The translations under genes were made by a program, and so were the position numbers. From assembly GCA_965178125.1 (NCBI GenBank), contig OZ237764.1, positions 682,001-746,000 of the forward strand: a DNA stretch of 64,000 bases, given 5' to 3'. The stretch's first letter is position 1, and every line of letters starts with the position of its first letter. The notes beneath the pieces were generated by a model that did not search any database, was not told where the DNA came from, and saw only the letters and a program-made list of their open reading frames with translations. The DNA is from Bilabrum cf. latius. Its lineage: Eukaryota. This document shows positions 1-64,000 of the stretch, piece after piece.

Positions 1-1
1 G

Positions 2-961
2 GTAATCCCTGAGCCACTTGATGCGGGCAAGGTGGAGGCGTCATCCAAGGTTGCCCTGGACAGTGCCGGCGATGTGCTTGCCAAGGCTGGTACCAGCGAT
101 TCGTTGGATGCAGTGCAGCGATTCTTGTCGCGGTTCCCAGACTCGGATGGGGAGACGCATAGCGGACCAGCAAGGTCGGCCGACTCCATCGGGAGCATGG
201 CAATGGCATCCGGGCCGGCGTCTGGGCCTGGTGCAGCAGAACCAGACCCACGGTCTGGCGCGAAGCGTCCTCGCACGATTGCAGTGCGTGGTGGCAAGGT
301 CGAGCATCCTGCCGGGCAGCCGATGCATTACTCGCATGGCGCGCAGACTGTGGAGAGAATGGCCCACCTGAACCTGCAAGCATTTGGGCTGGTGAAGCTG
401 GGCTCCCTTGCTGGCACGACTGAGACATTCATACCTCTGGTACATGTCACTTCTGGGATGACGGCTGCCGACCTGAGAACACGCATCACAGCTGGCATAA
501 GAGACGTTACAGCTTCTGCGAGTGCTTTTTCAGTTCTGCTCGACCATGATTCATTCTCAGGGATCATGCGTGAGGTGTACGCATTCAAGCAGAAGCTGGG
601 GCAACGGGCTGCTGTAGTTGACAGAGCTGGGCTCAACCGTGCATACGTCGAGCACATTAACAATGCCATACAAGCTAGACTGTCGGGTGCTCTTCAAGGT
701 GCCCCACTGGCTCAAACACTGTTAGATGTCGGCGAGATCGCGATTCGCCTCGCAGAGCTGGGTGTTGTCGTGAACATTCGACCAGGAGAGGGCCAAGAAT
801 GGATGAAGAGTTTAAAGCCGTTACAATAGCGGTCATTCGTTGAAGTATTGCTACAGCCGCGGGGCAATGCACGCCCTTTACATTTGGCTGCTGTTGCATG
901 GGCAGGCCCAATCCACTATGCGCACCACATGCTCCTGCTTAGAGACTATCCGATTAATTAA
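2..961 (+). CDS. Host gene X copy 1 (hypothetical, 5' end outside window), TAG read-through at 827-829
   Basis: Reading through TAG 827-829 gives ...WAGPIHYAHHMLLLRDYPIN-TAA(959-961), matching the C-terminus of the paralogues ending at 34323 and 48294. Confidence 0.8.
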
Positions 962-2390
962 ATTGGTTTTTTTCTGACATTGATGAGCACTTCCACACAA
1001 TCAACGTGTCCACCCGCCCTTGCTGCTTCCAGCACGTCCATACCCACACCATCCACCACCCCGGTCACCCACGCCCCACCAGCCAACTTGCCAAGCCTCA
1101 GCCGCTTCTCCAGCTCCATGGGCCTCCCCTCTCTCGCGGCCTGAAACACCATCGAGGCATCCCTGTGCGCCTCATGTGCCCGCCGCCACCGCACCAGCTG
1201 GTCCCCCCGTCTGGGATCCAGGTGCTTCACACGAGCCAGCTCCCCTGCGGGCACAAGCTCAAAAAGCTTGCCCAGCACCTCTCGGGGCCTGGCTCCCCGC
1301 TTGCTGCTGTACAGAGCTTTCGGCACCGGCAAATGCTCCGTCATGCTCCCGTACGACATGAACGACTGCGTTTCCCTGCATGCCACATCCAGCCACGTCA
1401 CTCCGGTCTCGCTGTCGAGCCCTTGTTGGTACACCCTTGTGCCCCAGCGCAGGAGAATAGCGAGAGAGGCAGCTGATTTCTCATCGCACGCTTGCAGTGC
1501 AGCATACACGATGAGAGCCTAACGCCTCTGATTGAGGTGAAATACACCTATGCCGTCGGGCGAAATGCTCTTCCACCCGCTTTCCAAGATACCAGCCCGA
1601 CATACGTACTCGAGGGATCGCAGTGCACCATGGCGAATGAGGTGACTGACAGCTGTGAGCTGCTCCTGTAAATTATGGTGTACCAGTTGAGTTATGAACC
1701 AAAAGGCGCATGATTTGATGAGATGCGCGCAATTTTGGATCCTTCATGTCTGCAGCACACTTGGCAGGCATCACTCACATTTCGGAGATTCTTTGAATTC
1801 ATGAGTATATGTTGAAATACGGCAGGCCTGTCCATCGCGCCGAGTGCATCAGATACTCCTAGGAACTGCTCATACGAAATGATTTGTGCAAATTATAACG
1901 ATGCCGGTGGACGACGAATGTAGACCCTGTGAGGCCATTTTGGGGCAGCATCTTTCTCACGTTGTAATTTTCGCCGTCGAACTCAAAACTCCTTGGCCAC
2001 TCCGACCTACCCAGCTTCTCGATATACTTATCAAATATTTGGATAGCGCGAGCGTCATCACGTTGCCTCATCGCTTGCAAGAACCGCTGCTTTAATGCTA
2101 CCCACATCCTGCAAAACCAAAGCCTCCAATTGAGCAGCATAATATGCCAGGGGAAACAAAAGCATTTGGTCCTATTACACTATTATCCATACCTCATCTG
2201 GTCGGGGTCGCGCTTCTCGGGATAGTCGTATATTGATAGATGCTCCTTCGGAACAGGAGCATTGTAAGCGTTTGCAAAGAGTTGTCGCGTCACCATAGTA
2301 CGATCAAATTGACAAAAGTGCCCGATGACCCAATCGTTCTCAACTTGCGACTGCAACTATGCGGTGGAAAATTGGTGAGAATGATGTGAT
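958..2390 (-). CDS. Host gene Y copy 1, multi-exon, C-terminal ankyrin-like repeat; 5' boundary approximate
   Basis: ORF 958-1509 ends with AAREGR...VLEAARAGGHVDCVEVLI (ankyrin-like). Upstream segment KQRFLQAMRQRDDARAI has counterparts near 44033-44260 and 49270-49440. Exon structure not resolved. Confidence 0.5.
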
Positions 2391-62777: not shown

Positions 62778-62963
62778 AAAAGTGTTTTGGCTCGGACCAA
62801 ATGCGGATATTAGAGAGACGCCGCAATCCGATGCATCGAGACGCTTCCCTGGCGGGTCTGAAACAGGAATCCAACGGTAAGAAGCGTCCAAGTGCTCCGT
62901 ATCCTGCTCACCAAGATCGGAAGCACGCCAGAGCATGCAAGTTATCACTCGTCACACCGTTCC

Positions 62964-64000
62964 TCAGCGCCCTCGGATGCCCTCGCACACGCCAGGCTGC
63001 TGAGCGAGTGCGTAGGCCTGCTGCACCACGTCATTGCGCGCGTCATCGAACCACGGGAAGCACAGCAGCACATCGCCCCTGCAGACGGCCGGCAGGTAGG
63101 CGTCAACCACGGTGCGGTTCGCGTCCCGTGGCACCGATCCCTGCATGAGGTTCACCGAGAACGACTCTGGCCAGGTAAAGTTGCTGGCGATGGGGGTGGT
63201 GAAAGGCGCGGGCTCGTTGTTGGTGAGCGGCGCAGAGACTCTCCGGTAGGCAAGGTCGCTTTCCTCGGGAGCCATGAGTATCCCAGGGACGGCCTTGTAC
63301 ACGAGCTCAAACACATCCGCGTCCAAGGCCCCGCCGCCGGGGCCAGTCACCGTTGAGTCGACGTAGAAGATGCTCAGGTTCTCGCCCCACCGCTTGCGGG
63401 CGTACTGGATCTTGCGGATCAGGTTGTCGGCCACCGCTTGCACGTCGCTGCGCCCGTCGGGCTTCAGCAGAAACTTCTGGTAGTACTTGAAAGGGGCCTA
63501 GTCAGGGGGCTGAGTGGACGAGTGGTTCGGGTTGATGGTGAGCACTTGCGGCCGGAGAGTGAGGCCTCCCCTGAGCCCCGCTCGCTGCATCATCGCGAAT
63601 GCCTCGTCGGCGATGCCATCCATCTCCGGGGCCAGGATGGGGAGCAAGTCTGGGCTGCCTATGTACGTGATGTCCTGAGGGTACTGCTGGCCCTCGATGC
63701 TCCAGATGATGATGCCCTGGCAGTCCAAACCGGACGTAGGCTGCTGCTGCTGCCGATGGGGCCTCCCAGAGGTGCACCGCTCGATGGAGCCGTTGACTTG
63801 CTGCAAGAACGCCTCCTGGAACGCCTTCACCCCCGCGGGGCTGGTCGTGTTGATGGACCCGGGGTCGGGGCCCACGGTCCATCCCCGTGGATTGGGGCAG
63901 TCTTCAGGTGCCAGCGACTTGCAGGAGCACGAGGCGCCGCATTTGCCGGCAGGGAACAGCGTGCCGATGGGTCGGCGGTCCTTCCAGTCCAGTGTCTCGG
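62964..64000 (-). CDS. Hypothetical protein, 5' end outside window
   Basis: WKDRRPIG...NPRGW...QGIIIWSIEG...TYIGSP...APEM...GLTLRPQ, continuing through TAG 63498 into KRWG...FYVDSTV. Confidence 0.65.

Follow-up and report, generated by a model that had tools for sequence, protein, structure and literature searches.

What does the codon TAG mean within the genes of a 64,000-nucleotide stretch of Bilabrum cf. latius DNA (contig OZ237764.1, positions 682,001 to 746,000; hereafter the window)? The window is nuclear eukaryotic DNA whose host sequence has a guanine-plus-cytosine (GC) content of ~60%, and it holds an integrated virophage, Ngaro-like retrotransposon sequence, a repeated element, and a region of host genes from 51.5 to 64 kb. 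An earlier, sequence-only reading had proposed that UAG is reassigned to Gln while UAA and UGA remain stops. We find that TAG is a sense codon here, and we consider it highly probable that in the cytoplasmic translation of this protist nuclear DNA UAG encodes Gln, with UAA and UGA as the sole stops (the pattern of NCBI translation table 15). The mobile elements of this genome, both virophage and retrotransposon, are adapted to the code of the host.

The three stop-type codons were counted in frame in four gene sets, using reading frames that are supported by homology or by length:

Low-GC virophage module: 1,481 codons; in-frame TAG 0, TAA 0, TGA 0
Mid-GC virophage: 3,959 codons; in-frame TAG 54, TAA 0, TGA 0
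Ngaro-like open reading frames (ORFs): 2,100 codons; in-frame TAG 16, TAA 0, TGA 0
Host and repeat-element genes: 5,668 codons; in-frame TAG 23, TAA 0, TGA 0

The total is 93 TAG, 0 TAA, and 0 TGA over 13,208 codons. The other two frames of these stretches contain 307 TAG, 285 TAA, and 532 TGA (817 for TAA and TGA together). The share of TAG among the Gln-type codons (TAG, CAG, and CAA) is 28% for the mavirus-like virophage and 15% for the ORFs of the Ngaro-like retrotransposon, and it falls to 9% for the genes of the host and the repeated element. The terminators of the 23 ORFs examined were found to be TGA in 14 and TAA in 9, as had been claimed for every gene traced, although this result is true in part by construction because ORFs were defined as frames without TAA and TGA. 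The non-circular support comes from the in-frame counts and from single-frame homology that runs across the TAG codons. With TAA absent from 13,208 codons in frame and present at the ends of 9 of the 23 ORFs, the use of UAA as a sense codon (table 6, UAR = Gln) does not describe this DNA; the proposed role of UAA and UGA as stops agrees with their absence in frame and their presence at gene ends.

Of 36 TAG codons in seven genes with homologs, 34 are located in alignment columns that are occupied by at least 30% of the homologs. Reading through TAG is needed for the lengths of the proteins to fit those of their relatives. The packaging ATPase is 303 aa long and is matched by a 302-aa relative that covers 100% of it, residues 2–613 of the DNA polymerase PolB align to residues 12–624 of orthologs of 620 and 626 aa, and the ends of both proteins coincide with those of the orthologs.

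A rival reading is a code in which TAG is Gln inside genes and a context-dependent stop elsewhere, as in Condylostoma or the karyorelict ciliates. Two genes could be taken in its favor, since either might stop at TAG. PolB ends (25476–25481, minus strand) in ...FL-TAG-TGA, and a 968-aa frame at 59871–62777, with no homolog to fix its end, has its only two TAG codons 55 and 64 codons before TGA. The final TAG of PolB may encode a last Gln, or it may form a tandem stop that survives from before the reassignment. However, there is no enrichment of TAG near the ends of ORFs. The 94 TAG codons are spread evenly along the 23 ORFs (Kolmogorov–Smirnov p = 0.67), with 10 in the last decile against 9.4 expected. 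The ATPase gene has a TAG five codons ahead of its TAA; the closest homolog carries Q at this position, and the orthologs continue to the same C-terminus. No conserved gene was found with a homolog-defined end on TAG, among the few genes with a defined C-terminus. We regard an ambiguous code as unlikely and prefer UAG as Gln throughout the genes.

Among the host genes, that for an LMBR1-like protein is organized as follows:

57594 to 57721, plus strand: exon 1, with the ATG at 57594; splice joint between 57721 and 57808 in sequencing runs X5 and X7
57722 to 57807, plus strand: intron, GT..AG, 86 nt; joint in X5 and X7
57808 to 59677, plus strand: exon 2, with four TAG codons (57989, 58247, 58649, and 58997), a TGA stop, and Pfam family PF04791

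The four TAG codons, at ORF residues 103, 189, 323, and 439, are all found inside a single Pfam match (PF04791, residues 44–526, E = 3.6e-62), as the sequence-only reading had reported for this domain. The joint was observed with a depth of 27.9 in X5 (95 letters on the shorter side) and 5.7 in X7 (132 letters), and these runs come from two different studies. Read by eye, the joined frame gives ...VAVTW followed across the joint by YFGFFGALFIPVDLA, which fits the conserved N-terminal helix "...W-Y-x-G-F-F-G..." of the homologs. The contigs of X5 and X7 are identified as spliced mRNA because the joint fuses the ATG exon in frame and restores this helix. Record 12 of X5 spans 57807–59524 with no other letters and no gaps and covers all four TAG codons; the X7 pieces listed cover three of the four. 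Runs of four studies were compared over 51500–63000 (X6 and X7 are without cover in parts), and no differing letters were found; the one single-base gap is at 61961 in X7.

These observations bear on the explanation that the TAG codons are damage or artefacts, whether from pseudogenes, assembly error, introns, or RNA-edited sites. In its favor, one transition is enough to turn CAG into TAG, decay is frequent among endogenous viral elements, and the major capsid protein (MCP) gene of the virophage is truly truncated. Decay is nevertheless contradicted because TAA and TGA would have arisen too, yet there are none against 93 TAG in 13,208 codons. Splicing, editing (including U-to-C editing), and assembly error are excluded at the LMBR1 sites because the spliced contig keeps all four TAG codons unchanged, and the four studies agree on the letters. 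In addition, the TAG sites of the virophage are kept as TAG or Gln codons among three virophage genomes (see below). The probability that the TAG codons are artefactual is close to negligible.

A second host gene is that for a protein with a MYB domain:

52255 to 54324, plus strand: frame of the MYB-domain gene, with TAG at 52774, 52906, 53095, 53722, and 54076 and a TGA stop

The product of this frame has matches to two Myb domain families of Pfam (E = 9.5e-10 for each). The Gln-rich surroundings that had been described for one of its TAG codons are present; the TAG at 53722 is found in ...QQQQQQQQQPPPPYR-TAG-QYQQQ.

The amino acid specified by TAG was determined by means of profiles in which it had no vote. 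TAG was masked as X in every search and alignment, and thus it could not pull the alignment toward Gln. Each family was given its own profile hidden Markov model, in which every query residue had one match state and only the homologs contributed sequences. The score of a residue was the log of the emission probabilities divided by background, summed over the positions of each codon. The homologs were as follows:

LMBR1: 5
ATPase: 40, plus 80 from virophage loci
Helicase: 10, plus 5 from virophage loci
PolB: 150
Penton: 54 ORFs of virophage loci
MCP: 29 ORFs of virophage loci
ORF at 18193: 53 ORFs of virophage loci

For the ATPase, the scan used a subset of 9 sequences, the alignment of 41 sequences being too divergent. 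With four families, all 61 sense codons were assigned correctly and the 28 TAG sites were called Q, with log-likelihood (lnL) margins of 7.2, 8.4, and 8.2 over E, K, and R, respectively. Extending the set to seven families (2,835 positions) again gave the right residue for 61 of 61 sense codons and Q for the 34 TAG sites, with margins of 5.9, 8.6, and 10.0 over E, K, and R, respectively. Q remained first in each of the seven runs in which one family was left out. When sets of 34 positions were drawn at random, those taken from Q positions yielded Q in 974 of 1000 draws, compared with 0 for E positions, 3 for K, 1 for R, and 11 for S. In the 10 close homologs (identity of 45% or more), Q occupies 44% of the 59 cells facing TAG, compared with 36% of those facing known Gln codons and 5–7% of those facing E, K, or R codons. 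The residue predicted at the TAG sites is thus Gln, in a pooled call carried mainly by the virophage genes.

A second line of evidence comes from two relatives of the virophage. A metagenome scan returned two contigs, L083 and L084, from one metagenome, whose ATPases are 73–74% identical to that of the window over the full length. Both contigs are syntenic with the window virophage, and the MCP, penton, and ATPase are 60–77% identical. Full-length genes in L083 and L084 require TAG to be a sense codon. The numbers of in-frame TAG codons are the following:

MCP: 10 in L083, 7 in L084
Penton: 11 in L083, 2 in L084
ATPase: 5 in L083, 9 in L084
PolB: 9 in L083, 8 in L084

Among ORFs of at least 180 aa there are 59 TAG codons in L083 and 56 in L084, and the stops are TAA or TGA. 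In L085, which is more distant, the four genes that were matched contain no in-frame TAG. Three-way alignments of the orthologs, restricted to well-aligned context, provided 158 ordered comparisons with TAG on one side. The codon facing TAG was TAG in 54, CAA in 29, and CAG in 17, for a sum of 100 of the 158. Glu and Lys were found 11 times each, Ser 7, Ala 6, and Thr 5, and other residues, with 1–3 each, made up 18. Codons for Leu, Tyr, and Trp were never found facing TAG, which matters because they include single-base neighbors of TAG. CAA (two changes from TAG) outnumbers CAG (one transition), and the pattern therefore reflects synonymous exchange rather than mutational neighborhood. As judged from the sequences, a clade of virophages that use TAG for Gln exists in the environment.

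Searching the phage collection by tblastn with the penton gave no match. Single-protein scans of viral contigs returned two loci of one contig with the helicase and no loci with the penton. A 148-aa PolB fragment in the protein collection, P0056, is 86% identical to residues 230–377 of the window PolB. It ends four residues before the window TAG site at query residue 382 (378 in gapped numbering), and this fits a standard-code gene call that was broken at TAG in a close relative.

The exchange of codons can also be seen within the window. The sequence-only reading had pointed to paralogous copies that swap CAG and TAG, and each of the five strings that it quoted is present exactly once and in frame: GATTCACAGGGC at 32608, GATTCATAGGGC at 46540, GTCCAGGTC at 33799, GTATAGGTC at 47770, and CGCTAGCAGTACCAGCAGCAG at 53719. 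The swap itself is in frame in two copies that are 86% identical as protein:

32614 to 32616, plus strand: CAG, the counterpart of TAG 46546–46548 in the paralog (column 194)
47773 to 47775, plus strand: TAG, the counterpart of CAG 33802–33804 (column 608); CAT in the third copy

When the close paralogs in the window are compared, TAG is faced by CAG at 3 sites and by CAA, AAG, TTG, and TAG at 1 site each. This pattern weakly supports Gln.

Besides the partial circularity of the gene ends, several observations weigh against Gln or lessen the force of the evidence for it. The Gln call is carried mostly by virophage genes, and the smallest margin over Glu was 2.5 lnL, with the helicase left out. 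Scoring by raw emission probabilities called TAG as K; this scheme was rejected with 46 of 61 sense codons right and CAA plus CAG also called K, and it was replaced by log-odds against background because it is biased toward abundant residues and gave 15 of the 61 sense codons wrong. LMBR1 alone cannot separate the residues: R is best, K, E, and Q are all within 1.1 lnL of it, and Q is 1.1 behind. The residues facing the four TAG codons in the LMBR1 homologs are, in turn, K/C/R/R, C/K/R/Q/Q, E in all five, and K/K/R/Q/R. Among the paralogs, the single AAG and the single TTG do not fit Gln. The multinomial lnL for the ortholog comparisons favors Gln over Glu by 110.8, a value that is inflated up to ~twofold because TAG-TAG ordered pairs were counted twice, the true value being possibly about half. 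None of the runs is recorded as RNA; the RNA status of X5 and X7 was guessed by software, with X5 marked "probably DNA", and it was deduced here from the splice joint. Finally, no tRNA genes were identified by ARAGORN in the 64-kb window or in L083 and L084, which leaves the decoding tRNA unseen; an Rfam scan of the window at the gathering thresholds gave no matches.

The results for single families could be taken to mean that TAG, in host genes if not everywhere, is a sense codon for Glu, Lys, or Arg. In addition to LMBR1, the ATPase family alone places E slightly ahead, with Q 0.7 behind. The pooled log-odds, in which the sense-codon controls were all correct, nevertheless place Q ahead of all three residues, and position sets for E, K, and R were almost never called Q upon resampling. 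In the orthologs, TAG faces CAA or CAG 46 times compared with 11 times each for E and K. A split meaning for host and virophage is unlikely since it would need two decoding systems in one cytoplasm. We judge another residue at TAG to be very improbable. The assignment of UAG to Gln, as originally proposed, is the call made by the masked profile log-odds, by the close homologs, and by the comparison of sister virophages.

Judging from other reassignments, a cognate tRNA-Gln with the anticodon CUA would decode UAG, and eRF1, whose gene is not part of the window, would have lost the recognition of UAG. Decoding could in principle be supplied by a virus. Giant viruses can carry tRNA genes, and a viral suppressor tRNA might permit TAG to be decoded only during the replication of giant virus and virophage, with the host code being standard. 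The TAG share is indeed highest in the virophage (28% versus 9% in host genes). However, 39 in-frame TAG codons belong to the retrotransposon ORFs and to host genes such as LMBR1 and MYB, and the spliced LMBR1 mRNA keeps its TAGs. These codons, together with the lack of a tRNA in the window virophage, L083, and L084, argue against a virus-borne suppressor, which we find scarcely credible. We therefore retain a reassignment of UAG to Gln in the host itself.

The one gene set without any in-frame TAG is a part of the virophage:

5114 to 9705, no strand: low-GC (36%) virophage module without in-frame TAG
5114 to 6208, plus strand: integrase with rve and chromo domains
6238 to 7329 and 7330 to 9111, minus strand: ORFs with a SAP-like N-terminus
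9220 to 9705, plus strand: DUF5824 ORF

There are 77 off-frame TAGs in the module, compared with none in frame in its 1,481 codons. In the mid-GC part of the element, TAG makes up 54 of the 194 Gln-type codons, and the difference from the low-GC module is significant by the Fisher test (p = 1.4e-6; 0.0027 relative to CAG alone). The low GC content is not the reason for the absence of TAG because L083, with a GC content of 38%, is rich in TAG (38% of its Gln-type codons). The homologs of the gene at 7330–9111 in L083 and L084 have 7 TAG codons each. Two different rve integrases, one beside each terminal inverted repeat (TIR), are 36% identical to one another. We infer that the element is a recombinant of a code-adapted virophage and a module that came recently from a lineage in which TAG is a stop.

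The remaining features of the virophage are listed below:

3167 to 32294, no strand: integrated virophage, bounded by TIRs
15917 to 30349, no strand: mid-GC (46%), TAG-rich virophage part, with Pfam matches and orthologs in L083 and L084
15917 to 16939, minus strand: MCP (Sputnik_MCP_1st, E = 2.9e-23)
17042 to 18151, minus strand: penton (V18-19, E = 2e-11)
18193 to 18870, plus strand: ORF, putative protease; relatives in 53 ORFs of 80 virophage loci; no Pfam name
19578 to 20489, plus strand: packaging ATPase, with 40 plus 80 relatives
21172 to 22518, 22830 to 24008, and 23983 to 24822, plus strand: three ORFs
25476 to 27320, minus strand: PolB, protein-primed (DNA_pol_B_2, E = 7e-7)
27374 to 29269, minus strand: D5-like helicase (DUF5906, E = 9e-15)
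29270 to 30349, minus strand: rve integrase (rve, E = 9.9e-10)

The element carries the core genes of a mavirus-like endogenous virophage together with protein-primed PolB (pPolB), rve, and TIRs, and its MCP is truncated. The protease among the core genes is putative since the ORF at 18193–18870 has no Pfam name. The TIR arms (3167–3670 plus 4444–5101 on the left, 31133–32294 on the right) are ~1.16 kb long and 100% complementary. The left arm is split by a 773-nt insert at 3671–4443 that the right arm does not have; the insert holds a proline-rich frame at 3683–4354 (minus strand) with no Pfam match. The MCP is 340 aa in length, compared with 599 and 628 aa in relatives, because the Ngaro-like insert interrupts its gene (at ~15926), and the missing half of the MCP was not found in the window.

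The sequence that interrupts the MCP gene is the following:

9713 to 15926, no strand: Ngaro-like tyrosine-recombinase retrotransposon sequence, GC-rich (61%), from repeats and RVT_3

Its ORFs encode a reverse transcriptase (RT)/RNase H (12532–15408, plus strand, 7 TAG), a putative tyrosine recombinase (YR; 14265–15602, plus strand, 4 TAG), and a third product (9713–11806, minus strand, 5 TAG). The direct repeat is 12356–12515 = 15767–15926, and the inverted repeats are 11808–11983/12362–12537 and 9769–9890/15651–15772. The stretch appears to contain two oppositely oriented copies that flank a 378-nt GIY-YIG remnant of the virophage at 11984–12361. The RVT_3 match has a score of 23.5 bits, above its cut-off, and no RVT_1 match was reported for this sequence. 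The contention that TAG splits conserved RT and YR domains holds for the presence of TAG in both ORFs; for the YR, the domain itself is less secure, as the Phage_integrase match of 20.9 bits is weak and below the cut-off of 27.1, with an H-x-x-R...Y region being visible.

The code type found here is already known (NCBI table 15 type), and the window is a further instance of a rare variant. In the available parts of two sources, UAG and UAA are described as nearly always changing meaning together, with a handful of nuclear lineages that split them, and UAG alone is assigned to Gln in Iotanema spirale (Fornicata), Protocruzia tuzeti, and two phyllopharyngean ciliate lineages (PMC5304391, PMC11687900). 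To that extent they agree with the rarity that had been stated for such a code. The window has the same code as these organisms, with UAG for Gln and both UAA and UGA as stops. The setting differs: a long contig whose host sequence has ~60% GC and spliceosomal introns carries a satellite of 112-bp units along with an integrated virophage and retrotransposons of the putative tyrosine-recombinase type, and we take it to be unlike the gene-sized chromosomes of ciliates or a fornicate genome.

A stop codon has been captured for Gln in the table 6 type as well (hexamitid diplomonads, many ciliates, Dasycladales, and Streblomastix strix), but TAA has not been reassigned in the window. According to the accessible portion of the source, UAA and UAG are both Gln in S. 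strix, and its endogenous viral elements use the table of the host (PMC10120064). The virophage of the window likewise follows the code of its host.

The closest resemblance in the organization of the element is to the endogenous mavirus-like elements (EMALEs) of Cafeteria burkhardae, which are described in the portion of Hackl et al. available to us as TIR-bounded virophages of lower GC content in a GC-rich host, with Ngaro insertions (PMC8547959). As far as that text goes, the shared features are the MCP, penton, ATPase, pPolB, helicase, and rve, and an interrupting GC-rich retrotransposon of ~6 kb that has split direct repeats and encodes RT/RNase H and, in the window, a probable tyrosine recombinase, so the bicosoecid-like landscape of virophage and tyrosine-recombinase elements that had been noted from the sequence finds a counterpart in Cafeteria. 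The same portion mentions no change of code, whereas the virophage genes of the window are unreadable unless TAG is a sense codon. The part of a 2026 Halocafeteria preprint that was at hand reports no Ngaro elements and makes no mention of the code. No report of UAG as Gln in a virophage-bearing flagellate was found in the literature searched, with most subscription journals and supplements being outside of its scope.

Phages with a recoded TAG (code 15) differ in their code from their hosts, unlike the virophage of the window, which shares its code with the host genes. In such phages, the crAss-like phages among them, in-frame TAG is Gln in the part of the source seen (PMC9523058). What the window adds is the co-adapted virophage clade, the co-adapted retrotransposon, and the chimeric module that is free of TAG.

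A possible, and tentative, scenario is that the host belongs to a lineage, perhaps of heterotrophic flagellates close to the Cafeteria-type virophage hosts, from which a UAG-only code had not been described before, that the virophage clade (the window element, L083, and L084) has co-adapted to this code, and that the chimera is a recent import from the standard code through what would be a one-way valve. The flow of genes from a standard-code host to one in which TAG is Gln would be expected to be easy because the incoming genes stay readable. If the scenario is correct, flow in the reverse direction would be blocked, and the change of code would act as a one-way valve for virophage genes. The locus thus offers a natural experiment, with a virophage, two environmental relatives, and a retrotransposon that use TAG and one module that does not, in which the effect of a code on the exchange of viruses and transposons would be measurable. 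Each further independent case also helps to test the coupling of UAG and UAA and how eRF1 and suppressor tRNAs separate them. The endogenous viruses of such hosts are likely to be under-counted because standard-code gene callers shred their genes, P0056 being an example.

The swapped CAG and TAG codons of the paralogs belong to a repeated element:

43629 to 50984, no strand: repeated element of ~7 kb, found by self-BLAST, with 2.2-kb direct repeats at 43629–45826 and 48802–50984 that are 94% identical

The element carries a "rep" gene (45964–48294) and an oppositely oriented ORF (48308–49057, minus strand), and no Pfam matches were obtained for its scanned ORFs. Further copies are present at 1–3178 and 32334–34818, on either side of the virophage. 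Because parts of these copies flank the virophage, it may have inserted into an element of this type.

Neither LMBR1 nor the integrase had a match when searched by sequence in the PDB. The region at 38040–43400 is a tandem satellite with 112-bp units in more than 40 copies, mostly 94–99% identical, and with a strong AT skew. The long "ORFs" at 37913–43400 were rejected as genes, the satellite opening all three phases. A second GT..AG joint in X5, located between the MYB frame and the frame at 54787–57453, skips 145 nt (54648–54792) with only 23 letters on its shorter side, and the gene model there probably includes an upstream exon. A short repeat at 57017–57051 shows a very high summed depth in the four runs (14,061 in X1), many loose ends, and back-joints, and it is probably a dispersed microsatellite-like repeat.

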